Source: Candidatus Woesearchaeota archaeon
GTDB taxonomy: Archaea > Nanobdellota > Nanobdellia > Woesearchaeales > CG1-02-33-12
NCBI GenBank assembly: GCA_018399355.1
Contig: JAGYOA010000004.1
Location: forward strand, 1 to 34,925
Reading direction: 5' to 3'
Length of the DNA: 34,925 nucleotides
Below are positions 6,023 to 34,921 of this stretch, piece after piece; the first letter of the stretch is position 1; every line of letters starts with the position of its first letter. The notes beneath the pieces were generated by a model that saw only the letters and a list, made by a program, of their open reading frames with translations, searched no databases and was not told the DNA's origin. A program made the position numbers and the translations under genes.

Positions 6023-7696
6023 CTAAATACCTCTCTTTGTATATTTTGTGTGCAGAAGTTCCTCGGCCTTCTCACTCAAAGGCCTTCCTAAATATTCCTT
6101 GTACAAAAGCTTTATTGCAGGGTTTTCATAGGAGCGTCTTATTATCTTGTTTTCATCATTGACATAAAGGGCCTGCATTCTTTTTTTGATAATTTCTTTA
6201 GTTGTAGGAATCGGCTGGCCTCCTCCTCCAATGCATCCGCCGGGGCAGGACATAACTTCAATAAAGTCATACTTGCACTCTCCTTTTTTTATCTGCTCAA
6301 GAAGCTCTTTTGCATAATGCAATCCATTAACAACAACAAAGGTTAAATCATGGCCATTAATCATTATATTCCCTTCCTTAACATTTTTTAATCCCCTTAT
6401 CTGATTGAACTCAAGGATTTCTAAATCCTTTCCTGTTTCCAGCTCGTAAGCAGTCCTCAATGCCGCTTCTGTTACTCCTCCTGTTGCTCCAAAAAGAGTC
6501 GCGGCTCCTGATGAAATTCCTAAAGGAGCGTCAAAATTATCCTCCTTTAAATTATTAAAGTTTATTCTGTGATTTTTTATCATCCTGGCAAGTTCTCTTG
6601 TTGTTAATACATAATCAACATCTTTGTTTAGTTCTTTTCTCTGTGCTTCAAATTTCTTTGCAGTGCAGGGCATTATACTTACAACAACTGCATTTTTCTT
6701 TTTTATCCTGCTGTTTTCAATATAGTAATTTTTTAAAACTGCCCCAAACATCTCATGAGGGCTCTTGCATGTGGAAACATGATTTAATAATTCTGGATAG
6801 AAATGCTCTATGTATTTTATCCATGCAGGGCAGCATGAGGTTATCATTGGCAGGTTTTTATTTTTTTTAACCCTTTCAACAAGCTCTGTTGCCTCTTCCA
6901 TTATTGTTAAATCAGCCCCAAACTGGGTGTCAAATACTTCTTTAAAACCGAGTTTTCTTAATGCAGACACCATCTTTCCTGTAACTAAAGTTCCTGGTTC
7001 TAATCCAAATTCCTCTCCTAATGAAGCCCTAACAGCAGGGGCTGTCTGGACAAAAACATGCTTGTTTTTCAATGCCTTTTCAACATCTTTTATTGAGTCT
7101 TTCTCATATATTGCATTTACAGGGCAAGCCAAAATACATTGCCCGCAATGAATGCAGACAGAATCATCTATTCTTCCCTCAAAAGCAGGTGTTATTTTCG
7201 TGTGGTATGAACGATATGCAAAGTCAATTGCGTTTACGTTTTGCATCTCACATGCCTGAATGCACTTTCCGCATAAAATGCATTTGTTGTCATCCCTTGC
7301 TATTCCTATTCCTTCATTAGGATTGTGTATCTTTCCTATTGTTGAGAACCTTGTTTGCCTAACTCCTACATCCTTGGCAAGAACGCAAAGCTCATGTTTT
7401 TTTGTTTGTGTAAGATGTTCTTTGTGCTCTGAAATCAAAAGCTCTGTGTTGATTTTCCTTGCTTTTAAAACGCGCTGTGATTCTGTGTCAATAACCATTC
7501 TTTCTTTGACTTTTGTTGAGCATGAAGGCATCATTTTTCCATTAACTTCTACAAGGCAGACGCGGCAAACTGATTTTGGATGAAATCTCTCGCTGTAGCA
7601 TAGAGTTGGAATTTTTATTCCTTGTTTTTTTGCAACCTGAAGTATTGTCTGCTCTTCTTCGCACTTTATTTTTTTTCCATTAAGGGTTATTTTCAT
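6023..7696 (-). CDS. hydA: [FeFe]-hydrogenase group A catalytic subunit
   Basis: H-cluster motifs TSCCPAW, MPCTAKKFE and EVMSCPGGCIGGGGQP. N-terminal [2Fe-2S] (PTLC...CRVC...PSC), 2x[4Fe-4S] (CILCGKC, CIHCGQC), and a fused small-subunit tail. Confidence 0.95.
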   Translation of the reverse strand: MKITLNGKKIKCEEEQTILQVAKKQGIKIPTLCYSERFHPKSVCRVCLVEVNGKMMPSCSTKVKERMVIDTESQRVLKARKINTELLISEHKEHLTQTKKHELCVLAKDVGVRQTRFSTIGKIHNPNEGIGIARDDNKCILCGKCIQACEMQNVNAIDFAYRSYHTKITPAFEGRIDDSVCIHCGQCILACPVNAIYEKDSIKDVEKALKNKHVFVQTAPAVRASLGEEFGLEPGTLVTGKMVSALRKLGFKEVFDTQFGADLTIMEEATELVERVKKNKNLPMITSCCPAWIKYIEHFYPELLNHVSTCKSPHEMFGAVLKNYYIENSRIKKKNAVVVSIMPCTAKKFEAQRKELNKDVDYVLTTRELARMIKNHRINFNNLKEDNFDAPLGISSGAATLFGATGGVTEAALRTAYELETGKDLEILEFNQIRGLKNVKEGNIMINGHDLTFVVVNGLHYAKELLEQIKKGECKYDFIEVMSCPGGCIGGGGQPIPTTKEIIKKRMQALYVNDENKIIRRSYENPAIKLLYKEYLGRPLSEKAEELLHTKYTKRGI

Positions 7697-8814
7697 TTTA
7701 ATTTTTCCTGAAACTCATTTTTAAAATACTTAAACTCTTTCATAATATGGTTTACAGAGGACTGGCCAAGCCCGCATAATGAAGTATCTCCTATAACACC
7801 GCATAATTCCTCTAAAAGCTTGAGATCTTTTCTTTTTGCTTTGCCTAATGAAATTTTCTGCAGCAGCTCAAGAACCCTTATATTTCCTTCCCTGCATGGA
7901 GTGCATTGCCCGCAGCTCTCAAACTCAAAGAATTTTGAGATTATTGCTGAGATATCAAGAATGTTTCTTGTCTCATCAACAAGAATTAATGATGACGCCA
8001 GCATAGCTCCTTTTTTTCTTATCGGCTCACAGTCAAGTATTAAGTTTTCATCATAGGGAATGCATCCGCCATAGCATCCAAAGTAAATTGCCTTTATTTT
8101 GTTTTTTGGTCTTGCCATTTGAATTGCTTTTTTTAATGGAATTCCAAGAGGAAGCTCGTAAACTCCTGGCTTTCGAACATCACCTGAAATGCAAAAGAGT
8201 CTCCAGTTATCATTCCAGTTCTTGTCAGTGAAAATTAAGGGAAGGTTTGCAAGGGTTTCAACATTATCAACCAAAGTAGGCATTGCAAAAAGCCCTTTTC
8301 TTGATGGAAAGGGGGGTTTTATCCTTGGATTTCCCCTTTTGCCCTCTATTGATTCTATGATTGCTGTCTCATCACCGCAGACATATGCTCCTCCCCCTAT
8401 TATTATATGAAAATTAAAGGTTATGTTAATCTTTTTCATTGCTTTTTTTGCAGCTTGAATTGCTTTCTCTATGTTTGGCTTTAGATAAGAATACTGGCCC
8501 CTAAGATAGATATACCCTTCTTCTGAGTTTATTGCCCTTGCAGCAATGAGCATTCCTTCTATTACATTTAAAGGGTTTTTTTTAAGAATAAATCTGTCTT
8601 TAAAGGTTCCGGGCTCGCCCTCATCTGCATTGCATATTATGTATTTTTTTACTCCTTCTCTTGACATTGTCATTTCTATTTTTTCACCAGTTGGAAAATT
8701 AGAGCCTCCTCTTCCTTTAAGTTCTGATTTTTTTATTTTCTCTTTGATTTCCTCTGGACTCATCTGCATTGCTTTTCTCAGCCCATTAAACCTTGTTTTT
8801 CTTAATATTTTCAT
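7693..8814 (-). CDS. hydB: NuoF/HydB-like FMN/NADH-binding diaphorase subunit (short form)
   Basis: GRGGSNFPTG, CNADEGEPGTFKDR, GAYVCGDETA and ESCGQCTPCREG...SLCGLG. Confidence 0.93.
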   Translation of the reverse strand: MKILRKTRFNGLRKAMQMSPEEIKEKIKKSELKGRGGSNFPTGEKIEMTMSREGVKKYIICNADEGEPGTFKDRFILKKNPLNVIEGMLIAARAINSEEGYIYLRGQYSYLKPNIEKAIQAAKKAMKKINITFNFHIIIGGGAYVCGDETAIIESIEGKRGNPRIKPPFPSRKGLFAMPTLVDNVETLANLPLIFTDKNWNDNWRLFCISGDVRKPGVYELPLGIPLKKAIQMARPKNKIKAIYFGCYGGCIPYDENLILDCEPIRKKGAMLASSLILVDETRNILDISAIISKFFEFESCGQCTPCREGNIRVLELLQKISLGKAKRKDLKLLEELCGVIGDTSLCGLGQSSVNHIMKEFKYFKNEFQEKLK

Positions 8815-9296
8815 CTTAACCTTGATATTATCTTTTTTATTTTATGTTCATTTAAATTGCCATAAACTTGATCATTTATCATCATTGCAGGAGATTTGTC
8901 GCAGCAGCCAAGACATGAGACAATTTCCAATGATATCTTTTTGTCTTTTGTTGTCTGGCCTGATTTTATATTTAATAATAACTCAAGAAATTTTATCAGT
9001 GTTACTAAATTATTGAGATAGCAGGAAGGGCTGTTGCATATCCTTATTATGTGTTTTCCCTTTGGCTCTGTGTAAAGCATGTCGTAAAATGTTATTACGC
9101 CGTAAATTGTTGAGAATGGAATCTTTGTTTTTTTAGCTATTTCATGGGCTGTGTTTTTTGAGATATATCCAAATTTTTCCTGTATTTTGTACAATAAAGG
9201 CAGAAGAAGAGGTTTTCCATCAGGCCCTTTAATAACTTCATCTATAATCATGCCAATTTCATCTGAAGACATCATCCACCTCTTTTTTGCGGCCAT
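8811..9296 (-). CDS. hydC: NuoE/HydC-like thioredoxin-fold [2Fe-2S] subunit
   Basis: IQEKFGYI, GVITFY and CNSPSC...CLGCCDKSP; 4-bp start/stop overlap with hydB. Confidence 0.92.
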   Translation of the reverse strand: MAAKKRWMMSSDEIGMIIDEVIKGPDGKPLLLPLLYKIQEKFGYISKNTAHEIAKKTKIPFSTIYGVITFYDMLYTEPKGKHIIRICNSPSCYLNNLVTLIKFLELLLNIKSGQTTKDKKISLEIVSCLGCCDKSPAMMINDQVYGNLNEHKIKKIISRLR

Positions 9297-9388: not shown

Positions 9389-9736
9389 TTATTCTGGAGA
9401 GGAACGTGGAATATCAGATTTCTCCTCTTCAGTCATTCCTTCTATTCCTGTTTTTGCTTCCTCAAACTCTACTTTTTCAATACAACAAACTAATCCTTGA
9501 CCAAGATCTCTTTCTATTTCTGTATCTGTTAAACAATCACTCCTTTTTTCTACTGTGCCTCCTTTTCCAATGCATTGTGCTCTGGCCATTGCCTCAGATT
9601 GTGTTGTATCCTTGTCTTGTCTCCAGGTTCCAATTCCACCTGTAAATATTAATATCAAAACCACCATAACAACCAGCACAATTGCTGCAATCACAATTGC
9701 GTTCATTGGCATGCTTTGCGCTTTTTTGCTTTTCAT
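9389..9736 (-). CDS. Small pilin-like protein (class III signal peptide) with a Cys-rich head
   Basis: MKSKKA|QSMPMNAIVIAAIVLVVMVVLILIF; upstream GGAGGAG RBS. Confidence 0.8.
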   Translation of the reverse strand: MKSKKAQSMPMNAIVIAAIVLVVMVVLILIFTGGIGTWRQDKDTTQSEAMARAQCIGKGGTVEKRSDCLTDTEIERDLGQGLVCCIEKVEFEEAKTGIEGMTEEEKSDIPRSSPE

Positions 9737-9738
9737 TT

Positions 9739-10020
9739 TTATTCTCCTCCTGTAATTTCCTCAGCAGCTGTAACACAACAGACTAGATTGTCTATATTAT
9801 CATCATCAATATGATCGCAGTTACCTTCTATTATATTTCCTTCTGTACATGCACTTTGAGCAACACATTCTCCTCCTTTTGCCTCACACTTTTGGATATC
9901 TCCTACAAAATTGCCCATACTGCCTGTGTATATCAAGATAAGAACTACCATTACTACAAGAACTATGGCCGCAATCACAATTGCATTCATTGGAAGGCCT
10001 TGGCCTCTTTTTTGTTTCAT
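9739..10020 (-). CDS. Small pilin-like protein (class III signal peptide) with a 6-Cys head
   Basis: MKQKRG|QGLPMNAIVIAAIVLVVMVVLILIY; strong GAGGTGA RBS and its own promoter near 10070..10085. Confidence 0.8.
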   Translation of the reverse strand: MKQKRGQGLPMNAIVIAAIVLVVMVVLILIYTGSMGNFVGDIQKCEAKGGECVAQSACTEGNIIEGNCDHIDDDNIDNLVCCVTAAEEITGGE

Positions 10021-10091
10021 TTTTTCACCTCATGTTTAATATAATGTTTATATCTTGGTTTTAGCTATTCTAGTATTTAAAATTATCGCTA

Positions 10092-10571
10092 TTAGCTGCA
10101 TATATCAAGGGTTATAAACAATGTTCCTCTGTCAGTTGGAATAGGGTATGTTTTTGATACTCTGTCTGACCTTGGCCGGCATCTATCTATATTCTCTATT
10201 GTATCTCCTCCTACAGTATATGCCTTGAAATTATATTGCTTTTTCCATTCATCAAGAGTGTTGTTGAAAATATTCCTTGAAACCTGCTGTATTTTACTGC
10301 AGGAGTCCATTCCATCATTGCACTCTATTCTCTGGAATCCTGCGCAGTCCTGAAATAACTCTGTCATAGAACTTTTCTTGCAGTCTGTTGTTGTCTTAAG
10401 CAGAACATTTATCATATTTGATGCAAGCTCTGAATCAACATAATTTTTTTTAGGATCTGAGTCTGAATCATTTAACACAACAAACTTAACAAAAAAAAGC
10501 AAACCAACAGTTATAAGGAGAACTATTATAACCAGCCCCACTATTTCTGCCTGTGATTTTTTTCCAATCAT
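10092..10571 (-). CDS. Class III signal peptide protein (minor pilin-like)
   Basis: MIGKKS|QAEIVGLVIIVLLITVGLLFF followed by a Cys-containing ectodomain. Confidence 0.75.
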   Translation of the reverse strand: MIGKKSQAEIVGLVIIVLLITVGLLFFVKFVVLNDSDSDPKKNYVDSELASNMINVLLKTTTDCKKSSMTELFQDCAGFQRIECNDGMDSCSKIQQVSRNIFNNTLDEWKKQYNFKAYTVGGDTIENIDRCRPRSDRVSKTYPIPTDRGTLFITLDICS

Positions 10572-11075
10572 TTAATCATAAACCTCAACAGTCAATACTC
10601 CAAAACCATAAGAGTTGCTTACAGCATCGTAAAGCGAAACAGGAACTTTTATAGAAGACAAAGCCCTGCTGTTTGTTTTTGTTCTTTCATATATTGTCCA
10701 TTCTGAAACAGAAGGATATATCTTTTTGATATGTATTTTGCTGAATCCAAAGCTATCAAAATAATACTCATTTTTTATCTTTTGATTGGAAGAATCATTA
10801 AGTATGCTAGACAATGCCTCTACTTTTAAAACATCAAAGCAGTCATCAACAACTATGTTTGCAGAAGTGGAAGAAGTGCACTGAAGCTCAGGAAGAAAAG
10901 AAACTAATTGAGCTGTTTGTATTGCCTTAAGCTGAAACTGCTCCTTGCTTGCATCGCTGACAGATGTATTGGCAACTCTTGCATAAAAAATAAGTCCAAA
11001 TCCAATTAATACAAAGAATATAAGAAGCACAGCTATTGTTTCAAACATCTTAATTTGAGCTTTTTTGTTTTTCAT
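10572..11075 (-). CDS. Class III signal peptide protein (minor pilin-like)
   Basis: MKNKKA|QIKMFETIAVLLIFFVLIGFGLIFY. Start moved to the ATG at 11075, next to the upstream gene's stop. Confidence 0.75.
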   Translation of the reverse strand: MKNKKAQIKMFETIAVLLIFFVLIGFGLIFYARVANTSVSDASKEQFQLKAIQTAQLVSFLPELQCTSSTSANIVVDDCFDVLKVEALSSILNDSSNQKIKNEYYFDSFGFSKIHIKKIYPSVSEWTIYERTKTNSRALSSIKVPVSLYDAVSNSYGFGVLTVEVYD

Positions 11076-11076
11076 T

Positions 11077-12051
11077 TTAGTATATTGTTGGGCAGGATGA
11101 TGACTGCAGATAATTATTATATTTTTCAAGACTTTCCTTGGAATCTTTAATATCACCTATATTGTTTATGTTGTAATCAACTGTAAACGGAGTGAGAGGA
11201 TAATAGGACCTACAAATTGTGTTAGAGTATTCTTCTCTTAAAATTTCAGTTCTTTTTCTATAGACCATACTTACAATATTCATTTTTTCCATTGCCTTTT
11301 CCATATTGCACTTGTAATTTTCAGCATCTTGGCTGAACATTGCACCTATGATCATTTCATTTCCAAGATAAGGCATTTTCCTCACAGGCTCAAACCTTAT
11401 TCCTGATTTTTTGTAAAATTCTATCTCATTATTAAGAGAGTCAACATGCACTGCAACAACCTCCTTATCTTTCATGTTGCCTGCAAAATCAGGCAATGAA
11501 ATATCCTCTGGATAAACATTATCAAAAAAAACAAAGCTAAGCTTGTGTCCTGTTTTCCTTAAGCTGGAAACATCATCAATAAGTTCCTTGTTTATTCCTG
11601 TTGGAAGCATTGAATAAATCTCTTTTCCCTTGTCTGAATCCATAATAACATACTTGAAATCAGGAGTGGTTATATAAAGAAAATTAGAGATATGATAGGG
11701 ATAAGCCCATGATAAAGACCAGGTAATCATTGTTCTTCCCTTGATTAAATCAGGAGCAAAAACTATTTTGTTTTTTGTTATGTCGCTTGTTATACTTCCA
11801 ACTGAGATTGAATTGCAGCTTACCTTAATCTCTGTATCTGGAATGCTTATCGGATTCACTGTATTTGCGCTTACCTCTGCACCAGACATTATAGTTTGCA
11901 TATTAGTAAGAATATTGTTTGCTATATTGGTTTCTGAATTGTCTTTAAGCTTTAAAACAACTGAACCAAAAAACAATAATATAAGAACTCCTGCTATTAA
12001 AATGAAAACCCAGTTAAACTGTACATCAATCACCCCTTTTCTTGAACTCAT
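11077..12051 (-). CDS. Class III signal peptide protein
   Basis: MSSRKG|VIDVQFNWVFILIAGVLILLFF. Start moved to the ATG at 12051. Confidence 0.75.
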   Translation of the reverse strand: MSSRKGVIDVQFNWVFILIAGVLILLFFGSVVLKLKDNSETNIANNILTNMQTIMSGAEVSANTVNPISIPDTEIKVSCNSISVGSITSDITKNKIVFAPDLIKGRTMITWSLSWAYPYHISNFLYITTPDFKYVIMDSDKGKEIYSMLPTGINKELIDDVSSLRKTGHKLSFVFFDNVYPEDISLPDFAGNMKDKEVVAVHVDSLNNEIEFYKKSGIRFEPVRKMPYLGNEMIIGAMFSQDAENYKCNMEKAMEKMNIVSMVYRKRTEILREEYSNTICRSYYPLTPFTVDYNINNIGDIKDSKESLEKYNNYLQSSSCPTIY

Positions 12052-12073
12052 TTTTAATATCTCAATTAAGAAA

Positions 12074-15000
12074 TTACTTTTTCTTTTTCTTGTATTTTTT
12101 AAGCTCTGCAGTTGCAACTACAGATAATTTTTCAAAAACATCCTTTGGTCTTTTTTCTTTCTTTGAAGCTGGTTTTTTTGTTTTCTTTGAAGATACAGTT
12201 TTAGTTGTTTTCTTTTTAGTTGTTTTCTTTTTTTCTGTTTTTTCAGGTTGTTTTAAAGTTTCTGTTTTTCCAATATCCATTCTTGAATGTATCTTGCTTC
12301 CTGCATCGCTCTTAGGAGAAGAAAAGGTGCTGAAAATCTTGTCATGTTCCTTAAACCTCTCCCTATCTTTTCTTAAATTATCCATTGCCTGTTTTCTTCT
12401 TAATTCAATTGAACTTTCATGAGGAGTTAATGAAGGAGGAGGTCTGTAAGAATTTCCTGGGTTTGGTTTTGGTTGAATTGGCTTAAAGTTTGTTGTTGTG
12501 AATGAACTTGTTGGCTTGGTTTTTTTCTTTTTGTTTTTAAAAACAAGAAGATATAATAACCCTGATACCAAAAAGATTATTCCAATTATTAAAAGGAACC
12601 ATGGCCAAAATCTTGATTCTGAAACATCTGGTTCATCATCTATTGGTTCTTCTTTTATATGTTCATCAGATGTTGGTTTTGAGGGAGTAGGAGGTGTATA
12701 TTCCTCACATCTGTTAAATTCATTGCAATATCCTGACTCACAATCGGATTTTTCATCACATTTCTTACCTATAGCACATTTTTTATCTTTAAATTCTGCG
12801 CAGTATCCCCCACAGTCAACATCTGTTTCATCTTCATCTAATTTATTGTTTGAGCATGAATCCACTCCAATGCAAATGCCATCACATTTTCCTGAAGTGC
12901 AGTCTGAATTATCCTCACATTCCTTTCCTTCTATGCATGGATCACAAGATCCTCCACAGTCAGTATCTGTTTCATCGCCGTTTTTTACACCATCAAAACA
13001 GCTTGGCTCTGCGCACATATTGCTTGAGTTGCAAAAACCGCTATGGCAGTCACTATCTTCTGAACAATTTTTTCCCAATCCACATTCAGGGCAAATTCCT
13101 CCTCCGCAGTCAGTATCTGTTTCATATCCATTCTGTATATCATCATAGCATGTTGCAGGTTTTTTCAATGAATCAACAATAACCCCATCACTTTGTCCTG
13201 GCTGGCCTACTGATCCTGCCCTATTTGATGCTTTTACAAAAAAGAAATATTTTGTTCCTTCTGTAAGGTTAAGGTCTTCTTTATTATGGTCTTGGTCAAC
13301 CCAAATAAACATATCTTCATCATGGCTTTTTGTCCAGTTAACAATAATATTTTCTGATTCATCCTGTATTTTATAAAGGAAGTAATCAACTCCTGATAAT
13401 GGCCTTTCATACAATTCCCATTTAGCTCTTATCTTGTTTGTGTAGTAAGAATATTCAGGGAAATCATCTATGTTGCTTGTATCATCAACTACTGGTATGT
13501 TTACAGGCGCTGTATCAACAATAAATTGCGCTACTTCATTTGCGCTATTTCCGCCACTATGGCACTCTACATGATAAGTATGTGTGCCATCATTAAGATT
13601 ACTTATGGTTGTCTTATGCTCATATCCTCCTGAACCTAATCTTTCTTCTATATTGGAGGAAGTATTGCCGTAGAAACATTCTGAGTCCTTGTTTGTTTTT
13701 ACTTCTAAATAAACATAAGACTCATTGTTGTATTTTTTTGTGATTATTTCAATTTCAATTTCTGCATCAAGATCAACATTAACTGTTATTTCTTTTGTAT
13801 CAGATACAATCTCTGCCCTGTTCATGCATGCTACATAGTAAGAATATGAATTCTTTTCTTCGCTGTCTATGGTAATTGTTGCCTGATGGGCATCTTTGAA
13901 TATATTTTTATCAAAATCAGGAAATTTATTTTCCATCAGCTCATAATCCTGTTCTGTTGTATCATACCTACATATTGTTTTGTCATCAGTTCCAACAACT
14001 AGTACAGTTTCAAGAGGATATTCAATTATTTTTGGCGCATAATAAGTGTGTATAACTGGTTTTGAAGAATCCACTGAAAGCTCAAAATTATATGTGTTTC
14101 CGTCCGCATCCCAATAACCATCATAACATTTAACATAAAGTTTAGTTGTTTTTCCTTCAATTAATTCATAATCTGTTTTTTTGTGCTCTTCTCCTCCTGT
14201 AATTTCAAAATCAATCATATGCTTGTAGTTTAATATTCTATCATAATATTTGCATTCTGCATCATGGTCTGTTAACAGAACTATATCAAATGGGCTTTTG
14301 TCTGAAACGCCGTAACTAGGCTCAGCAAGTTCTATGTAAGGTCTGCACTCTCCCCCTAAATCAACAACAACCTCTCCTATTTGTTCATCTTTTTCCTTGT
14401 TAAAGCAGAGTATGTCTCTTGTGCACGCAGGGTCATCTTTGGTTATTTGAACAGAATCATCATAATCATTGCAGTCTAATCCCAGGCAATAACCATCTTC
14501 ATCATTATCTATTGCCTCTCCTTTTTCATTAACCTCGCAGCCCAAAGGAGTCCACTCTTCTTCATCAATAGGATTCAACACTTCATCTCCATCCTGATCA
14601 GGGTCAAATTCATCAGGATTTCCATCTCCATCATAATCGCTCATGCAAACCCCTTCCCAACAGGCATATCCTTCCCCACAGTCTGAATCTTCCTCACAAT
14701 CTGAATCAGGGCAAGTGCATTCATCTGTGCATCTTCCAGGGCAGGCATCATCATCTGTTCCGTCACATTCCTCAAGCCCTTCTCTTATATTATTCTGACA
14801 TTCAGAAGGAATTTCCCTGCATGTTAGGTCTCCAAGGCATTCATAACCTTCAGGGCATGGACATGCTACACAATCATAAGACAATTCACCATCACGGCAG
14901 AATTGGGATGTTGTCTCATTACATTCTCCATCCTTTGTTCCGTCTTCGCAATCTCTAGGTTCAGTTTGAAATTCGCAATGGCTTACATCAAGCCATTCTG

Positions 15001-16282
15001 ATTCATAGGCATCGTAATTTGATTGTCCTTCTGGATATTGAGGATAAAGGCGAAACATTATTTTTCCTGTAAGGTGTTCAACACATTCGCTTTCAGTTAA
15101 ATAATAAAAGGCAACAAAAAAAGAATTCCCTTCAACAGATGTTTCAGATAGAGTAACATCTACATCACATGAGCCGTCTTCTCCTCCTGTGCCATCCTCA
15201 TCATAAAATAAATCAATTTCATATGAAATAGCCTCTTCATATTCTCCCCAAGTGAGAAGTACATAATCGCAGCTTTCTAAGGTTGCCTTGAAATCTGCGG
15301 CTGTAACTGCAATTTCCTCGCATGATAAGGTTGTAGGATTATAAATTTTTCCAGGGGGGCAGTAAGCGCAGCATTTATTATTCCCTTCAAATGTTGTTCC
15401 TCCATTTTCTATTTTGCACCATTCGTCTGATGGTTCTCCAATGGAATATGATTTCCAAATAACATCATTACCTAAATCATAATTTGAGCAGTTTGTACTG
15501 CATGAAGAAAATCCAGTTTCAATATAACTTGATAATGAACTCATATCAAGGTTGAAGGGAAGACCTGAATTATTTTCGCATGAATCACATACGGGAGCCC
15601 CCACACATTTTTGCGCTTTTGAGCAGTAATATGTTTTTGGTGGGCAGTATATGCAACAATGTGTTCCCTGACCTGAACATAGAGTGCACCAATCACTTGT
15701 TCCTAAATTATATTCAACTAGATTAGGAGCATCTGGACACCCATATGCACATGTGGCAAATCCTTCTCCTACTGAAGATTCATCATAATCAACTAAAGAT
15801 ATAGCGCCAGAACCACATCCTCCTTGTTCCATAGTGCATGGAGTAACGCATGGAACAGAACAGCAGTTAGGACAACCATCAGGAGGATTAACCCAACAGT
15901 CTGGACAAACATCATTTCCCGTGCATTTATAACCTTCATATGGTGAATCACCACAACTTTTTGGAACGCACCAGCTATCACAAGTTTCATCTACAATATT
16001 TCCTTCATCATCATAAACATTTTTACAATTACATGTGCCTGAACGTTTCATATTATCTGGGCAAGAACTAAAACATGCTGCATCTAAAGGAGGATCATAT
16101 GGCGCAGGGTTTGATGCTTCGCAGAAACCTTCACAAGTTTCATCTGGTGGTGTGAGTTCCTCCTCAGGAGTAGAAGGAGAGTTATTAAAAAGTAACCATA
16201 ATATCCCCCCAATACCTAAAACTACTACAGCAGTTAAAGGATCAAATCCTTTTTTGTTTTTTCTGATCTTTCTAAGATACAT
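12074..16282 (-). CDS. Giant Cys-rich cell-surface (adhesin-like) protein
   Basis: KNKKG|FDPLTAVVVLG N-terminus, many Cys repeats, DxDxDG Ca-binding-like motifs, Ig-like stretches, 3 ETDxDCGG repeats, a C-terminal TM helix and a Lys-rich tail. The start at 16282 (upstream AGAGGA) is preferred; 16333 is possible. Confidence 0.85.
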   Translation of the reverse strand: MYLRKIRKNKKGFDPLTAVVVLGIGGILWLLFNNSPSTPEEELTPPDETCEGFCEASNPAPYDPPLDAACFSSCPDNMKRSGTCNCKNVYDDEGNIVDETCDSWCVPKSCGDSPYEGYKCTGNDVCPDCWVNPPDGCPNCCSVPCVTPCTMEQGGCGSGAISLVDYDESSVGEGFATCAYGCPDAPNLVEYNLGTSDWCTLCSGQGTHCCIYCPPKTYYCSKAQKCVGAPVCDSCENNSGLPFNLDMSSLSSYIETGFSSCSTNCSNYDLGNDVIWKSYSIGEPSDEWCKIENGGTTFEGNNKCCAYCPPGKIYNPTTLSCEEIAVTAADFKATLESCDYVLLTWGEYEEAISYEIDLFYDEDGTGGEDGSCDVDVTLSETSVEGNSFFVAFYYLTESECVEHLTGKIMFRLYPQYPEGQSNYDAYESEWLDVSHCEFQTEPRDCEDGTKDGECNETTSQFCRDGELSYDCVACPCPEGYECLGDLTCREIPSECQNNIREGLEECDGTDDDACPGRCTDECTCPDSDCEEDSDCGEGYACWEGVCMSDYDGDGNPDEFDPDQDGDEVLNPIDEEEWTPLGCEVNEKGEAIDNDEDGYCLGLDCNDYDDSVQITKDDPACTRDILCFNKEKDEQIGEVVVDLGGECRPYIELAEPSYGVSDKSPFDIVLLTDHDAECKYYDRILNYKHMIDFEITGGEEHKKTDYELIEGKTTKLYVKCYDGYWDADGNTYNFELSVDSSKPVIHTYYAPKIIEYPLETVLVVGTDDKTICRYDTTEQDYELMENKFPDFDKNIFKDAHQATITIDSEEKNSYSYYVACMNRAEIVSDTKEITVNVDLDAEIEIEIITKKYNNESYVYLEVKTNKDSECFYGNTSSNIEERLGSGGYEHKTTISNLNDGTHTYHVECHSGGNSANEVAQFIVDTAPVNIPVVDDTSNIDDFPEYSYYTNKIRAKWELYERPLSGVDYFLYKIQDESENIIVNWTKSHDEDMFIWVDQDHNKEDLNLTEGTKYFFFVKASNRAGSVGQPGQSDGVIVDSLKKPATCYDDIQNGYETDTDCGGGICPECGLGKNCSEDSDCHSGFCNSSNMCAEPSCFDGVKNGDETDTDCGGSCDPCIEGKECEDNSDCTSGKCDGICIGVDSCSNNKLDEDETDVDCGGYCAEFKDKKCAIGKKCDEKSDCESGYCNEFNRCEEYTPPTPSKPTSDEHIKEEPIDDEPDVSESRFWPWFLLIIGIIFLVSGLLYLLVFKNKKKKTKPTSSFTTTNFKPIQPKPNPGNSYRPPPSLTPHESSIELRRKQAMDNLRKDRERFKEHDKIFSTFSSPKSDAGSKIHSRMDIGKTETLKQPEKTEKKKTTKKKTTKTVSSKKTKKPASKKEKRPKDVFEKLSVVATAELKKYKKKKK
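12813..13125 (-). repeat. Three coding repeats (ETDxDCGG module, period 144-150 bp)
   Basis: CAGTCAGTATCTGTTTCAT at 12957..12975 and 13107..13125, with a 2-mismatch copy at 12813..12831. Confidence 0.85.
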
Positions 16283-16372
16283 TAATATTCCTCTTTTTCG
16301 TTTTCTTTTTATGTTATTATGGTTTTTATACAAATCTCTATATAAATCTTTTTGTTTTTATATCTGTTTATT

Positions 16373-17620
16373 TTAAATAATTGAAAATGCCTCTCCACTC
16401 ACATACACATTGAATGTTTGGCAATCTCTGTTGTTTGTATTGGTTTTTTCATGCGCGCAAACATTTAATTCAACAAATTTTTTTTCAAAATCTGGGTCTC
16501 TGACTATGTAAGGCAATTCAGGCGAATATGTAAATATTATCTCATCCTCATCAGGGTCATCTGCAATAGGATTTATGTGCTCTTTGGTTATCCTTGCTCC
16601 TGTTATAGCTTCTAAACCAGAAAATATAATGGTTGGTAAGTAAATGAAACGCAGCGCAGGGGGTCTGTTCTCCCGGGCAAACCTGAATTCATAAGGCTCT
16701 GTGTAAAGCAGTGAATTATTATCATAAACAATGATTATATCTTCATCTTCATAAACATTTTTTTCTCTGGATACTCTCATCCCTTCCTTAAGTTTAGGTG
16801 AATCTGGGTTAGTTATGTTAAACAATATGTCTGTTATATCCTTGTTTATTGTAAATTCTGTTAAATCATAAATTTTTCTTAATCTTATTTCAGGGTTTGA
16901 ATAAAAATAACTGACATTTGTTTCCATTCCTATTGATTTCTTTTCTATTAAGAGAGGATATTCAAGGATGGAAAAAACTTCATCTTCTGTAATTATAAAA
17001 GATATATTTATTTTTCCTTCATTTATATAAAATCCCTGATTTTCAAATATACTGAAGTTAATATTTTTCTCAAGATAATTAAGGATATAATGTTCCATTT
17101 GCGCCCTGATTGAAATTGCTGAACTGTTTAAATCAGGCAGGTTACTTTTACCAAAAAAACCTGAAAACCTTGGATTTCTGCCAAGAGTGGTTTCTGCAAG
17201 ATAGGGATAAAATTTCCATGGGTAAAGGGGAGTATCTGGGAAATAATAATTTTTTATTATTTCATTTTCTTTTTCTATGCAGTATGAAACATTATGCCTG
17301 TCTTCATAAGTGGGAGTAGATGTATCATAAGTTATAAATTTTGAAGGATCAGGAATAGGCCCACCCTGGCTTTCATAGATATAACCTCCCTGTCTTCCAA
17401 TTAAGTAAAGGCCTTTTTTGGTTGCATCATCAAGCTGTGTTGTTATATAATTTGTTACTGGAAGTGCTTCTTTTGGGATTTTCTGTGCTTTTATTATTCC
17501 TTCCTGGCTTATTTGTTTGTATGATGAGCCTTTAAAATAAAAGTAAATAATTGCTGATGCAAGTAGAATAATACCTAGAATTATGTAAACTGTTACCTGT
17601 CCCCTCTTTTTTTTAAGCAT
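16373..17620 (-). CDS. Class III signal peptide protein with a C-terminal Ig/cadherin-like domain
   Basis: MLKKKRG|QVTVYIILGIILL; C-terminal ENRPP...DDPDEDEIIFTY motif. Confidence 0.75.
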   Translation of the reverse strand: MLKKKRGQVTVYIILGIILLASAIIYFYFKGSSYKQISQEGIIKAQKIPKEALPVTNYITTQLDDATKKGLYLIGRQGGYIYESQGGPIPDPSKFITYDTSTPTYEDRHNVSYCIEKENEIIKNYYFPDTPLYPWKFYPYLAETTLGRNPRFSGFFGKSNLPDLNSSAISIRAQMEHYILNYLEKNINFSIFENQGFYINEGKINISFIITEDEVFSILEYPLLIEKKSIGMETNVSYFYSNPEIRLRKIYDLTEFTINKDITDILFNITNPDSPKLKEGMRVSREKNVYEDEDIIIVYDNNSLLYTEPYEFRFARENRPPALRFIYLPTIIFSGLEAITGARITKEHINPIADDPDEDEIIFTYSPELPYIVRDPDFEKKFVELNVCAHEKTNTNNRDCQTFNVYVSGEAFSII

Positions 17621-22663: not shown

Positions 22664-23401
22664 ATGTGGATATGGTTAGGACTTCTTGTTGTTTTTATTG
22701 CAGCAGGAATAAAGGTTGTTAATGAGTATGAAAGAGGAGTTAGGTTTACTCTTGGGAAATATTCTGGGGTTATTATGCCTGGACTAAGGTTTGTTATACC
22801 TATATTACAGACATGGCAGAAAGCTGATATAAGAACAAAGGCTATTGATGTTCCAGACCAGGATGCAATAACAAGAGACAATGTTTCTATAAAAGTGAAT
22901 GCTGTTTTATATTATAAAGTTGCCCAAGCAGAAAGGGCTATAATCCAGGTTGAGCATTATGGATATGCTGTTTCTCAGTTAGCCCAGACAACAATGAGGG
23001 ATGTTGTTGGAGAAGTAAGCTTAGATGATTTGTTAAGCAAAAGAGATTCTGTCTCATCAAAGATAAGAATGATTGTAGATAAGGCAACTGATCCATGGGG
23101 AATAAAAGTTGAATCTGTTGAGCTGAAGCATGTTGAGCTTCCAGAAAACCTAAAGAGAGTTATTGGAAAAGAGGCAGAGGCAGAAAGAGAAAAAAGAGCA
23201 GTGATAATAAAGGCAAGTGGAGAAGTTATTGCAGCAAATAACATGGCCAAGGCGGCAAAAACCCTTGCTACAGCTCCAGGAGCACTGCACTTAAGAACAC
23301 TGCAGAGCATAAATGATATAAGCTCTGACCAAAGCAATACAGTAGTATTTGCAGTTCCACTAGAAGCACTAAGAGCTCTTGAAAGCATGAAGAAAAAGTG
23401 A
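22664..23401 (+). CDS. SPFH/band-7 stomatin-like (slipin) protein
   Basis: EYERGVRFTLG, ITRDNV, LAQTTMRDVVG, PWGIKV, AEAEREKRA and ALHLRTLQ. Confidence 0.93.
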   Translation: MWIWLGLLVVFIAAGIKVVNEYERGVRFTLGKYSGVIMPGLRFVIPILQTWQKADIRTKAIDVPDQDAITRDNVSIKVNAVLYYKVAQAERAIIQVEHYGYAVSQLAQTTMRDVVGEVSLDDLLSKRDSVSSKIRMIVDKATDPWGIKVESVELKHVELPENLKRVIGKEAEAEREKRAVIIKASGEVIAANNMAKAAKTLATAPGALHLRTLQSINDISSDQSNTVVFAVPLEALRALESMKKK

Positions 23402-23410
23402 TTTTTGGGC

Positions 23411-23676
23411 TTCCAAAAGAAATAAAGGTATAATTTTTTTATTTTATTTTTTCCTTTGAAGTTTTCTAGTTAAATTAAAGGAATATTATAAAAAAGTATA
23501 GATTTCTCCTCTTCAATTATAAAACAAGAAAAACAGATTAGTATGGTTTTACCTATCCTAATATAAAAAATTTCCAGTGGAAATAAGGGGGTGTCATAAC
23601 AGTAAAAATTTCATATTTAAAAAACAAGCAAGCAAAAGCTTTATAATGAGGTTTTTCCATTTGAAATTAAGGGGGT
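23411..23676 (+). repeat. Cluster of ORB-like (origin recognition box) direct repeats upstream of mcm
   Basis: TTCCAGTGGAAATAAGGGGGT (23572), TTCCATTTGAAATTAAGGGGGT (23655), TTCCAAAAGAAATAAAGGT (23411), and a weaker copy at 23463, within an AT-rich 357-bp intergenic region. Confidence 0.75.
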
Positions 23677-23758
23677 ATAACCTTTTTAAAATATAGTTAG
23701 CTAAACAAAAGAATTTATAAAGAAGTTTTTTTATTGTTTTTTAGGGTAGGTAGTTAAG

Positions 23759-25777
23759 ATGGATGCTTCAGAGCAAATAAAAAGATTTTATAATTTTCTT
23801 GAAAAAAATTATCAGGATAAACTTCTGGAAAATATCAGAAGAGGGAAAAACTTCCTTATCATGGATTTTTCCAAGCTTTCTATGTTTGACCATGAACTCG
23901 CTGAAGAGATTCTTGAGCAGCCAGAAGAAACAATAAAGGCAGCTGAGATAGCAGTTGAGCAGTTTGAATTGCCTAGCCCCATAAAAAGATTCAGAATAAG
24001 ATTAACTAATATACCTGAAGACCAAACAGTTGCAATAAGACATATAAGAGCAATGCATATAGGAAAACTTATTGTTTCAAAGGGGATTGTAAGGCAATCC
24101 TCTGATGTAAGGCCTCAGACTGTATCAGCAAAGTTTGAATGTCCAAGCTGTGGCAACACAATTTCTATATTGCAGACAGGCCAAAAATTCAAAGAGCCAA
24201 CAAGATGTTCATGTGGAAGAAAGGGAAAATTCAGGCTTTTAAGCAAGGAGCTTGTTGACTCACAGCGTATTGTTGTTGAGGAAGCACCTGAATTTCTTGA
24301 TGGAGGAGAGCAGCCAAAGCGTATATCTGTTTTCTTAAGAGAAGACCTTGTAGAACCAGTAATGGAAAGAAAAACCACTCCTGGAAGCAAAATTTTAATA
24401 GCAGGAATATTAAAAGAGCTTCCAATTAATTTAAGAGAAGGGGGAACTTCAACAAGGTTTGATATTATTATTGAAGCAAATTATATAGAGCCAATAGAAG
24501 AAACATTTGAAACTATTGATATAAGTGAAGAAGATGAAAAAGAAATAATAAGCCTTTCAGAAGATCCTAAGATATATGAAAAGCTTGTAAAAAGCATTGC
24601 TCCTTCTGTTTATGGCCACGAAGACATAAAAGAGGCTCTTGTTCTGCAGTTAATGGGGGGAGTGAAAAAAGAAAGAAATGACGGCACAATAACAAGAGGA
24701 GATATGCATATCCTTCTTGTTGGTGACCCAGGAGCTGCAAAAAGCACCCTTCTTATATTTATGTCGCATGCAGCCCCAAAGGCAAGATATGTTGCTGGAA
24801 GAGGTGCAAGCGGAGCTGGATTAACTGCATCTGTTGTAAGAGATGAATTTTTAAGAGGATGGGCTCTTGAAGCAGGAGCAATGGTTCTGGCTAATGGTGG
24901 TTATTGTATGATAGATGAAATGGACAAGATGAGCACAGAAGACAGGTCTGCGCTGCATGAAGCATTATCACAGCAAAAAATCAGTATAAGCAAGGCAAAC
25001 ATACAGGCAACCTTAAGGGCAGAAACAACTGTCTTGGCTGCAGCAAACCCTAAATTTGGGAGGTTTGATCCTTATCAGCCAATTGCCCAGCAGATTGATT
25101 TGCCTCCTGCATTGATAAACAGGTTTGACTTAATATTCCCTGTAAGAGACCTGCCAAGCAGGGAAGTTGATGATAAGATTGCAAGCCATGTTTTAAATAT
25201 TCAGCAGAGTATGAATATAAGAGAGCCTGATATATCAATACCTTTACTTAAAAAATATGTCGCTTATGCCAAGCAAACCATAAAACCAAAGCTTACTGAC
25301 AGTGCAATAGAGGAAATAAAAAATTTTTATGTTGAGCTTAGGAATATGGGTACAGATGAAGAGGGAATAAGGCCAATCCCTATATCAGCAAGGCAGCTTG
25401 AGGCCTTAGTCAGATTTGCAGAGGGTTCAGCAAAGGTAAGACTGTCAAAAAAAGTTACAAAATCAGATGCAAAAAGAGCAATAAGAATCCTTAAATACTG
25501 TCTTATGCAAGTCGGTTTTGATTATGAAACTGGCCGCATTGATATTGACAGGATTTCAACAGGAATTCCTGCAAGTCAGAGAAGCAGAATAGTGCAGGTT
25601 AGGGAAATAATAAATGAGCTTGAAGGCACATTCGGAAAAACAATTCCATTGGAAGATATAATAAGCTCTGCCTCTGAAAAAGGAATAGAGGAAGCAGAGG
25701 TTGAAGAAATAATAGAAAGGCTTAAACGCTCAGGAGATATATTTGAGCCAAAAAGAAATTTTTTAAGCAAGCTTTAA
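23759..25777 (+). CDS. mcm: Replicative helicase MCM
   Basis: Zinc finger CPSC...CSC, Walker A GDPGAAKS, Walker B IDEMDK, AAANP, arginine finger NRFD and a C-terminal wHTH. Confidence 0.97.
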   Translation: MDASEQIKRFYNFLEKNYQDKLLENIRRGKNFLIMDFSKLSMFDHELAEEILEQPEETIKAAEIAVEQFELPSPIKRFRIRLTNIPEDQTVAIRHIRAMHIGKLIVSKGIVRQSSDVRPQTVSAKFECPSCGNTISILQTGQKFKEPTRCSCGRKGKFRLLSKELVDSQRIVVEEAPEFLDGGEQPKRISVFLREDLVEPVMERKTTPGSKILIAGILKELPINLREGGTSTRFDIIIEANYIEPIEETFETIDISEEDEKEIISLSEDPKIYEKLVKSIAPSVYGHEDIKEALVLQLMGGVKKERNDGTITRGDMHILLVGDPGAAKSTLLIFMSHAAPKARYVAGRGASGAGLTASVVRDEFLRGWALEAGAMVLANGGYCMIDEMDKMSTEDRSALHEALSQQKISISKANIQATLRAETTVLAAANPKFGRFDPYQPIAQQIDLPPALINRFDLIFPVRDLPSREVDDKIASHVLNIQQSMNIREPDISIPLLKKYVAYAKQTIKPKLTDSAIEEIKNFYVELRNMGTDEEGIRPIPISARQLEALVRFAEGSAKVRLSKKVTKSDAKRAIRILKYCLMQVGFDYETGRIDIDRISTGIPASQRSRIVQVREIINELEGTFGKTIPLEDIISSASEKGIEEAEVEEIIERLKRSGDIFEPKRNFLSKL

Positions 25778-25778
25778 A

Positions 25779-26465
25779 ATGCCAGAACCTCAAAAAAGAC
25801 AAATTGCGTGTAAGGTGCGCGTTTCAGACCTCACTGAAGGAGATTATATAAAAGAAGAGGGATGGAACCCTAATTATATTTTTACAAAAAAAGGAGAAAA
25901 AATATCAAGGGTAAATCTGATTGCAGCAGTAATATCTATAAATAATGAAGGTAGTTATAATTCTGCGGTTGTTGATGACGGCACTGGAAGTATTTCATTA
26001 AGGTCTTTTGAGGAAAATCAGCAAATAAAAAGTCTTGATGTTGGTGATGTTGTTTTAGTTGTGGGCAGGCCAAGAGAGTATGGTTCTGAAAAATATATTA
26101 TGCCTGAAATAATAAAAAAAATTGAAAACAAAAAATGGATTGATGTAAGAAAACTAGAGCTTGATATAGAAGAAAATAAGAAGAAAGAACTTAAAGAAGA
26201 TATAAAGGAAAAACAAGATACAAAAAAAGAAAAAGAATATGCAGTTGAAGAGATTGATGAAAACACAAAATCAGAAAATAATATGGGAAAAGACCATGAA
26301 ACTGTTTACAATAAGGTTAAGGAGCTGGATAAGGGCGATGGAGCAGATATTGATGAAATAATAAAAAAATCTAAATTAAGCAATGCTGAGGAAATAATAA
26401 AAAAGTTTATGATGGAAGGAGAGATGTTTGAGATAAGGCCCGGTAAAATAAAAATCTTAGAATAA
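25779..26465 (+). CDS. RPA2/RPA32-like OB-fold plus winged-helix protein
   Basis: SRVNL, VDDGTGSI and VLVVGRPREY OB fold, a charged linker, and the EGEMFEIRPG wHTH end. Confidence 0.8.
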   Translation: MPEPQKRQIACKVRVSDLTEGDYIKEEGWNPNYIFTKKGEKISRVNLIAAVISINNEGSYNSAVVDDGTGSISLRSFEENQQIKSLDVGDVVLVVGRPREYGSEKYIMPEIIKKIENKKWIDVRKLELDIEENKKKELKEDIKEKQDTKKEKEYAVEEIDENTKSENNMGKDHETVYNKVKELDKGDGADIDEIIKKSKLSNAEEIIKKFMMEGEMFEIRPGKIKILE

Positions 26466-33624: not shown

Positions 33625-34836
33625 TCAAGTTAATCCTAACCCTTCCTCTAAGATCTTCTTTATTTTGGATTCAGATGCAGACCTTATTGCAAGGGATATT
33701 TCCCTTGTTCTTCCGTAACGGCCCTTTGATATAACCTTTGCATTTATTATTCCAAGCATATCAAGTTCAGCTATTATATCAGAAACTCTTCTTTGGGTTA
33801 ATGGTCTTAATCCTGCCCTAAAGCATGTTCCCTTATAAACTTCATAGGCTTTTCCAGTAAATATTATATTGTTTTTTTTGGTATAAAGTGATAATATTGA
33901 ATGAAGCACTGCCTGAAATTGTTTTGGTTGTGTTGTTATTATATCCATGATACGGTCTCTTTCAATCTTGTCTTCAGCATCATCTATGTGTTTTATTTTA
34001 ACCTGTGTATATCCATTTCTCTCTGCGAGTTCACCTGCAACCCTTAAAAGCTCTAATGCACGCCTTGCATCTCCATGCTCACGGGCAGCATAAGCAGAAC
34101 ATTTTTCAATCACACCTGGCTCAATAACTTGTTCATTAAAGGCCTCTTTTGCCCTTTGATTTAATATATCCTGTATTTGAAGGGCATTATAAGGGGGAAA
34201 CAATATCTCTTCCTCTGATAAAGATGATTTAATCCTTGGATCAAGATTATCAACAAAAATCAAGTCATTTGATATTCCTATTATAGATATTTGGGATTTT
34301 TCAAGCTCTGCATTTATTCTTGTTAAATTATAAAGCAGCTCATCACCAACTTTCTTAACAAGCTGGTCTATTTCATCTAAAACAATTATTAAAAGTTGTT
34401 TTTCACTGTCAATTGTATTGAAAAATATTTTGTATACTTCATCAGTTGGAAGGCCTGTAGGAGGTATTTCTTTGCCAAACTCCCTTACAAGCTGGGCCAT
34501 TAGCCTGTATTCTGTATCAGCAACCTTTCTAAGCTTGCAATTAATATAAATAAGCTTTAAAGGTATTTTTTCTTTTTTTGCTATTTCTGACATCTGCTGT
34601 ATAGTATATTTAATGGAAAGTGTTTTTCCAACCCCTGTTTTGCCGTAAACAAACAAGTTTGATGGCTTTTCAAGCCTTAATGAAGGTCCTAATATGCTTG
34701 CTATCTGCTGTATTTGGTCATTTCTATGCAAAATAAGCTCAGGAAAGTAGGTTGAAAGGAATATCTGCTTGCTTTTAAACAAGGATTCCTTACTTAAGAA
34801 TTTTTCAAAAAAACTACCTAACCCCTTTTGTACCAT
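33625..34836 (-). CDS. cdc6: Orc1/Cdc6 replication initiator
   Basis: Walker A GKTGVGKT, YINC, Walker B LDEID, GDARRAL and wHTH GRYGRT. Confidence 0.96.
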   Translation of the reverse strand: MVQKGLGSFFEKFLSKESLFKSKQIFLSTYFPELILHRNDQIQQIASILGPSLRLEKPSNLFVYGKTGVGKTLSIKYTIQQMSEIAKKEKIPLKLIYINCKLRKVADTEYRLMAQLVREFGKEIPPTGLPTDEVYKIFFNTIDSEKQLLIIVLDEIDQLVKKVGDELLYNLTRINAELEKSQISIIGISNDLIFVDNLDPRIKSSLSEEEILFPPYNALQIQDILNQRAKEAFNEQVIEPGVIEKCSAYAAREHGDARRALELLRVAGELAERNGYTQVKIKHIDDAEDKIERDRIMDIITTQPKQFQAVLHSILSLYTKKNNIIFTGKAYEVYKGTCFRAGLRPLTQRRVSDIIAELDMLGIINAKVISKGRYGRTREISLAIRSASESKIKKILEEGLGLT

Positions 34837-34842
34837 TTTTTA

Positions 34843-34921
34843 CTCCATATGAAAATAAGGTTTAGTATTTCATATAAAAAACTTGTTATTTTAGCCACCC
34901 ACCCCTTGATTTCAGATGAAA
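34843..34921. other. ORB-like elements upstream of cdc6 (probable start of oriC, cut by the window end)
   Basis: Minus strand TTTCATCTGAAATCAAGGGGT (34901..34921) and plus strand CTCCATATGAAAATAAGG (34843..34860) flank an AT-rich spacer. Confidence 0.65.

Follow-up and report, generated by a model that had tools for sequence, protein, structure and literature searches.

Why is the gene for the replicative helicase of an archaeon preceded by origin recognition boxes (ORBs), when the gene for its initiator, Orc1/Cdc6, lies 10-11 kb away from these boxes? The question is raised by a 34,925-nucleotide stretch of DNA (hereafter the window), which is a whole contig of a 918-kb genome of a Candidatus Woesearchaeota archaeon in 85 contigs. 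An initial annotation had listed an origin linked to mcm, one part of a split origin bracketing the block of replication genes, and an Orc1 operator for mcm and RPA. The last of these is the option that our analysis supports, on the presence of boxes at most such promoters of the order, on their constant orientation and on their retention at mcm in the window's family.

Gene content of the window

The features that bear on the question are collected in Table 1. The mcm gene had one match in the genome and was the only full copy found. The nearest structures to the product of orc1/cdc6, the only initiator match in the genome, were S. solfataricus Cdc6-1 (2QBY_A, E = 1.7e-109) and A. pernix ORC1 (2V1U). 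The genes for Cdc6, DP1 and DP2 run opposite to mcm and begin at 34836, 89 bases from the end of the contig. A record from Candidatus Woesearchaeota (L260) has an MCM 87.5% identical to that of the window and the same three-box layout.

Elsewhere in the window, a three-gene [FeFe]-hydrogenase cluster (large subunit, Nuo51-like protein and 2Fe-2S thioredoxin-like protein) was found at 6023-9296 on the reverse strand. On the same strand, 9389-17620 holds genes without Pfam matches, including an ORF of 1419 amino acids at 12074-16333.

Table 1. Features of the window at the mcm and cdc6 loci
Feature	Position	Strand	Remarks
SPFH/Band 7 gene	22664..23401	+	PF01145; 5′ neighbour of the boxes; same place in 9/9 other family members
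Intergenic gap with boxes	23402-23758		Between SPFH gene and mcm
ORB-A, distal (predicted)	23411..23430	+	PWM 23.5; short G-string (GG only); 161 bp before ORB-B
ORB-B (predicted)	23572..23591	+	PWM 28.9, top ORB of the genome; full G-string
Spacer, ORB-B to ORB-C	23592..23654	.	Length fixed, sequence free
ORB-C, promoter-proximal (predicted)	23655..23674	+	PWM 22.9; full G-string toward mcm
Predicted BRE and TATA box of mcm-rpa promoter	23707..23721	+	
mcm, replicative helicase	23759..25777	+	672 aa; Pfam MCM, MCM_lid, MCM_OB, MCM_N, MCM_WH_arc
OB-fold protein, putative RPA2-like	25779..26465	+	Pfam PF01336; starts one base past mcm stop
orc1/cdc6, Orc1-1 type	33625..34836	-	NF001625 above cut-off; first gene of cdc6-DP1-DP2
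Leader ORB, weak	34843..34862	+	PWM 18.2; in cdc6 leader, opposite to cdc6
cdc6-side ORB of canonical origin	34902..34921	-	PWM 21.1

Origin recognition boxes in the mcm gap

Sites were scored with a position weight matrix (PWM) trained on 42 ORBs upstream of cdc6, from other families only. The boxes of the gap scored 22.9-28.9 with this cdc6-origin matrix, which bore out their assignment to the archaeal ORB in the initial annotation. A genome-wide scan, which the annotation had proposed as a check, found the motif to be rare: ORB-A, ORB-B and ORB-C ranked 4, 1 and 5 in the 918-kb genome, and small contigs carry the remaining two of the five best sites, both within coding frames. In the reversed genome, the highest score was 19.0. 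Among 2000 dinucleotide shuffles of the gap, one had a single site of 16 or more and none had more than one. Two small, mobile-element-like contigs (G000:C72 and C82) carry ORB-like words in coding frames.

The annotation had counted four copies in the same orientation. Three of them stood (23411, 23572 and 23655), and both copies said to have full G-strings do have them. We rejected as an ORB the copy at 23464..23483 (+), which scored 3.3, a value reached in 187 of 1000 shuffles, and had 25% invariant columns among ten family members. The boxes at 23411, 23572 and 23655 combine a TTCC...GAAA core and a one-sided G-string with rarity, conservation and a cognate gene of the Orc1-1 type; they are predicted ORBs.

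Among the ten members of the window's family, which are close kin and not independent, invariant columns made up 70% of ORB-B, 55% of ORB-C, 40% of ORB-A, 80% of the BRE-TATA core and 25% of the spacer. ORB-A was found in 9 of the 10, 160-163 bp 5′ of ORB-B. ORB-B was identical in a contig of DNA run X1, which may be the source sample. As side observations, a conserved block with inverted ends lies directly 5′ of ORB-B in 10/10 family members (23539-23566 in the window), and a decayed box-like word lies about 66 bp 5′ of ORB-B.

The boxes end just before the likely mcm promoter, as had been proposed: TTTATAAA is at 23714-23721, 59 bases past the start of ORB-C. The spacing in the window results from a 14-bp deletion relative to the 73 bp of the family, with the loss of one TATA-like word. 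The gap was also correctly described as AT-rich (76%, against 67% for the genome), but its AT content is far lower than that of the unwinding elements at the origins of 9 family members (83-93%).

The origin at cdc6

In 24 of 29 cdc6 loci of relatives, we found an AT-rich element of 104-771 bp preceded by a reversed box and followed by a forward one, with the G-strings outward. This is exactly the anatomy of Sulfolobus oriC1 (ORB3-DUE-ORB2), an origin that uses the same box and an Orc1-1-type protein according to the accessible parts of its descriptions (PMC12141716, PMC6742236).

The initial annotation was right that the motif also occurs upstream of cdc6 in the window, at 34843 (+) and 34902-34921 (-). 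These two boxes are not the inverted pair of the origin. In relatives, the AT-rich element and the inverted box come next beyond the cdc6-side ORB, and the window contig ends a few bases past that box. The gene on the far side of the origin begins at the end of another contig (C21), so the remainder of the origin must lie in a gap of the assembly. Contigs of three DNA runs were searched, and none extends past the end of the window contig. Contigs C82 and C72 were considered as the missing part and rejected, their boxes being within coding frames. A weak box similar to that in the cdc6 leader of the window overlaps the leader in 27 of 30 loci, which are partly the training set of the PWM.

Rearranged and complete genomes keep the sets of boxes apart. 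In G043, an inversion split cdc6 from its origin: the inverted pair remained in place and only the leader box moved with cdc6, so that the origin pair, the cdc6 leader box and the tbp-mcm box are cleanly separate. G036, a single contig, has only four sites of 20 or more, three at cdc6 and one at the (tbp-)mcm promoter. Inverted ORB pairs away from cdc6 were seen in L384 (G043:C1:79500-90500) and L085 (G044:C36), as origins parted from the initiator gene by rearrangement.

Of the 24 AT-rich elements at cdc6 origins of the order, 23 contain a 14-bp palindrome of the TTTC-N6-GAAA type; in other orders, it was seen at 9 of 27 cdc6 loci. This palindrome is a possible analogue of the Sulfolobus ucm. 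GC skew in the window tracks gene strand, and in G036 neither skew nor third-position skew had a clean origin pattern. As a measure of marker frequency, the depth of assembled contigs is flat by construction.

Boxes at mcm promoters across the order

We compiled 52 promoters, namely 41 of tbp-mcm operons, the 10 of the window's family and that of G041; the set excludes G004, for which 65 bp upstream were available, G044 and G051, in which neither tbp nor a box lies upstream, and G089, which has no box. A box of 16 or more was present in 43 of the 52: in all 10 of the family, in G041 and in 32 of the 41 tbp-mcm promoters, the other 9 having none, like G089. The conservation upstream of mcm that the annotation had asked for was thus found in both the family and the order. 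All 76 boxes point toward the gene. Box-bearing promoters had 1-4 boxes, with one only in 20 of the 43. The boxes at mcm promoters are a real, order-wide feature.

Their spacing falls into discrete classes. Intervals between boxes were 83-86 bp in 23 of 33 cases, 160-163 bp in 9 and 74 bp in 1. From the start of the proximal box to the BRE-TATA core, the distance was 73 bp in 17 of 38 promoters, 57-61 bp in 12 and another value in 9; five more promoters had no match to the core. A TATA-like word at 56-61 was present in 31 of 43 promoters and may be the real constant of the spacing. Box-TATA distances step by 14 bp (45, 59, 73), which is not a helical turn, so a rigid direct contact with TBP/TFB fits poorly.

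A scan of a sequence collection for a box with a TATA returned at least 119 loci, of which 64 were at tbp or mcm, 17 at cdc6, 2 at a winged-helix gene and 36 unassigned. The scan required a TATA within 56-74, and it overlaps the genomes of the 52-promoter set, from which the spacing classes were picked. Among the matches listed, a TATA at exactly 57, 59 or 73 was found for 49 of 64 loci at tbp or mcm, 1 of 17 at cdc6, 0 of 2 at the winged-helix gene and 13 of 36 unassigned. Together with the 52-promoter set, the matches listed gave 79 unique promoters.

Strong ORBs were also seen at a gene of about 150 amino acids with a coiled coil and a winged helix. In 10 genomes, picked by their ORBs, 1-3 boxes lie just upstream or downstream of it in either orientation; examples are L081-L093 and L103-L113 (L092:2425-2877, L093:3134-3583). 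The copy in G058 has no ORB upstream, and neither do longer paralogues. Pfam, PDB and Atlas gave no confident name for the family.

Fate of the boxes where tbp left the operon

Across most of the order, the boxes stand ahead of a tbp-mcm-rpa operon; in the window's genome, tbp is on another contig. Over the 286-700 bp examined upstream of them, the 8 relocated tbp genes of the window's family had no box of 11 or more; at mcm, boxes were retained in 10 of 10 members. On the MCM tree, the sister of the family is G037, in which four boxes, tbp and mcm are retained, and the loss of tbp from the operon is therefore derived. G041, which stands apart from the family on this tree, has a box pair directly before mcm and a box-free tbp. 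The relocated TBPs of the family and of G041 join on long branches in a quick TBP tree, which leaves the full independence of the two losses in some doubt. In G048, a weak box (18.7) lies directly before mcm and none before tbp. The opposite outcome was seen in G040, where the box stayed before tbp and an ORF on the opposite strand separates mcm. In G044 and G051, there is no box at either gene. In the window's family, the departure of tbp without boxes points to mcm-rpa as the likelier unit of regulation.

TATA-like words averaged 3.8 per 130 bp upstream of relocated tbp (6 genes), 1.5 upstream of mcm of the family and 0.94 upstream of 346 background genes. Some tbp promoters (L101, L137-L141, L393-L395) have 3-5 such words within 130 bp, kept after relocation. 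These runs are a possible signal of TBP autoregulation.

Range beyond the order and distance to the origin

In other orders of the class, a box of 16 or more upstream of mcm was found in only 1 of 39 genomes, with three of the loci having less than 1 kb upstream. These orders often keep tbp-mcm (29 TBPs were recovered from the 39 loci). The same PWM found boxes at cdc6 in 27 of 27 tested, in both orientations in 25 (28 of 40 genomes were submitted). Since boxes were so rare at mcm in other orders, yet always present at cdc6, the mcm-promoter boxes look specific to the order within the class. Among the matches listed in the collection scan, there was no box before mcm outside Woesearchaeales-type sequences.

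Wherever the two share a contig in the order, the operon is 2-27 kb (possibly 32 kb) from cdc6, as read by hand. In other orders, mcm is 50-300 kb from cdc6 in five genomes; it is often far and box-free. With the operon near cdc6 in every such case of this order, a function at the promoter is not separable from proximity to the origin.

Some records in the collection need care. Twelve titled 'uncultured Methanosarcinales archaeon' have tbp or mcm of the Woesearchaeales type and look mislabelled (L186, L193, L194, L200, L216, L227, L229, L239, L240, L242, L243, L254), and an 'Acidobacteriota' contig (L187) carries archaeal cdc6-dp1 with ORBs. MCM matches in nine genomes (G030, G026, G049, G032, G021, G043, G057, G047, G051) are split in open frames of up to 1065-1429 amino acids, probably by inteins.

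An Orc1/Cdc6 operator as the favoured explanation

We lean, with slightly better than even confidence, toward the explanation that the boxes are Orc1/Cdc6 operators that control transcription of mcm-rpa, probably by activation, rather than a start of replication. Their fixed orientation and the set classes of distance to the predicted core promoter are what an operator would have. According to the accessible text of two papers (PMC6742236, PMC12141716), an ORB is bound by a single, oriented Orc1 molecule, with MCM loading proposed to take place between opposed boxes. Direct repeats cannot give this opposed geometry, which argues for the operator.

Each box would be occupied by one oriented molecule of the single Orc1-1-type protein, with the G-string side facing the promoter. 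The TATA core, 37-53 bp downstream of the boxes, is left uncovered, and Orc1 bound at the boxes would favour transcription and time the expression of the helicase. For archaeal activators, a site upstream of the core promoter leading to activation is the general rule. Activation is suggested here solely because the boxes sit upstream of the core promoter. The weak box in the cdc6 leader would have the opposite effect, repression of cdc6: because it is reversed and lies in the leader, it suggests that 34843-34862 is a candidate site of cdc6 autorepression. Shortly after initiation, the sites would be cleared and doubled by the replication fork arriving from the origin, which is 11 kb away.

An extension of this mechanism, which we regard as improbable, is a licensing sensor. 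Orc1-ATP at the proximal box would load an MCM ring into the 60-63 bp spacer, on the side that corresponds to the unwinding element of an origin, and the mcm-rpa operon would read both loadable helicase and active initiator.

Alternative explanations

An independent second origin linked to mcm, the first suggestion of the initial annotation, is very unlikely. It would account for the strength of the ORBs and for their setting between genes, in DNA of 76% AT. However, an inverted box within 900 bp was found at 0 of 79 unique promoters, a 60-bp window of at least 90% AT upstream at only 4 of 79, and the spacer was less AT-rich than the unwinding element at cdc6 in 12 of 12 paired genomes (0.61-0.78 against 0.72-0.93 for the whole element). 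In the accessible part of the work on Sulfolobus oriC1, both inverted boxes were required (PMC12141716). The canonical origin is at cdc6 in 24 relatives, and a second one only 11 kb from the first would bring little gain. The inverted pair, the highly AT-rich unwinding element and the adjacency to the initiator gene of an oriC1-type origin are all absent at the mcm boxes. We are doubtful, though less so, of an accessory role in which the boxes belong to a split origin and contact the cdc6 origin through a DNA loop, or in which Orc1 loads MCM from one side into the 60-63 bp spacer but the site does not fire. Boxes with a period of 83-86 bp are 8 helical turns apart, with free sequence, and 5 of 79 promoters, with G043 in addition, have the origin palindrome upstream of the boxes, against 2 of 253 background blocks, which were mostly coding. 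A second ORB cluster near oriC, bound by Cdc6, is conserved in Thermococcales, as the accessible text has it (PMC1904270). On the other hand, the mcm gap of the window has no such palindrome, and 20 of the 43 promoters have one box only. The distance to the origin (2-27 kb) and the orientation relative to it vary, but the orientation to the promoter is constant: in G042, G043, G059, G128 and G129, read by hand, the operon points away from the origin and the boxes follow the promoter. The bracketing split origin of the annotation is disfavoured by these five operons and by a cdc6 origin that is already complete.

The boxes might also form a titration locus, for which the promoter is only a convenient gap: they would sequester Orc1 close to the origin, be doubled just after initiation and hold back re-initiation, in the manner of Haloarcula oriC2D or E. 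coli datA. We consider this unlikely, though it has the best prospects among the alternatives. The boxes are always origin-proximal in the order and lack origin anatomy, and they equal or exceed the origin boxes in strength. The extra-origin clusters at the coiled-coil/winged-helix gene lie on either side of it in no fixed register, and in the accessible account (PMC3936714), oriC2 of H. hispanica is under negative control from a separate cluster of ORBs. Titration, however, needs neither a single orientation nor set distances to a TATA, and many genomes have a single box, with 1-4 per promoter, against 11 in oriC2D. Both titration and the accessory role keep some probability mainly because the boxes at mcm coincide with closeness of mcm to cdc6. 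There is very little to recommend a different winged-helix factor as the reader of the boxes, or the notion that they are neutral relics of an origin duplication. ORB clusters do flank the coiled-coil/winged-helix family in relatives, but the gene was not found in the window's genome, and the boxes match the PWM of cdc6 origins and are better conserved than the spacer.

Comparison with known systems

Compared with the accessible descriptions of Sulfolobus oriC1, the mcm boxes are direct repeats in a promoter register, with neither an inverted partner nor a strong unwinding element. The cluster in dp1 of Thermococcales (Matsunaga 2007, PMC1904270) is likewise an order-wide, extra-origin ORB cluster near oriC; in the text available, Cdc6 binding is shown for it, whereas it is predicted here. 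The dp1 cluster is intragenic and about 1.5 kb from oriC, whereas the mcm boxes lie between genes, at 2-27 kb from the origin, and are linked to a promoter. H. hispanica oriC2D (Wu 2014, PMC3936714; PMC4010727) is also a separate ORB cluster near its origin and has no origin activity, so far as the accessible sections describe it. Its 11 boxes lie directly downstream of cdc6E, with titration as the proposed role; here, 1-4 phased boxes lie upstream of the helicase operon. The regulation proposed here resembles DnaA boxes in the dnaA promoter and Sulfolobus Orc1-2 (PMC6061795), in that a protein of the initiator family controls promoters. Orc1-2 is described in the accessible text as a non-initiating paralogue, whereas here the true initiator and canonical ORBs would control a helicase gene.

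The literature that we searched consisted of main texts, few of them from subscription journals. We found in it no paper on ORBs at an mcm or tbp-mcm promoter and no described archaeal case of a true initiator and canonical ORBs controlling a helicase gene. ORB, MCM and TBP do not appear in the main text of a 2026 preprint on 208 Nanobdellota genomes (bioRxiv 10.64898/2026.05.13.725050), which reports 123 complete genomes of Woesearchaeales. The new part of our analysis is the comparison across tbp losses, in which the boxes stayed with mcm in the window's family, in G041 and weakly in G048, with tbp in G040, and with neither gene in G044 and G051.

For tools that predict origins, the finding is a warning, as the best ORB in such genomes can sit outside the origin. 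The binding of Orc1 can be tested in vitro on a short fragment with the protein encoded 10 kb away. Samson et al. 2013 reported non-origin ChIP sites of Orc1/Cdc6 and, as unpublished data, altered transcripts in mutants; on these grounds, archaeal initiators have been proposed as transcription regulators in the accessible part of that work (PMC3607249). The helicase operon of this order is a specific candidate target. If the licensing sensor were true, the order would have an Orc1 regulon comprising cdc6, mcm-rpa and the coiled-coil/winged-helix gene, with feedback from the helicase.
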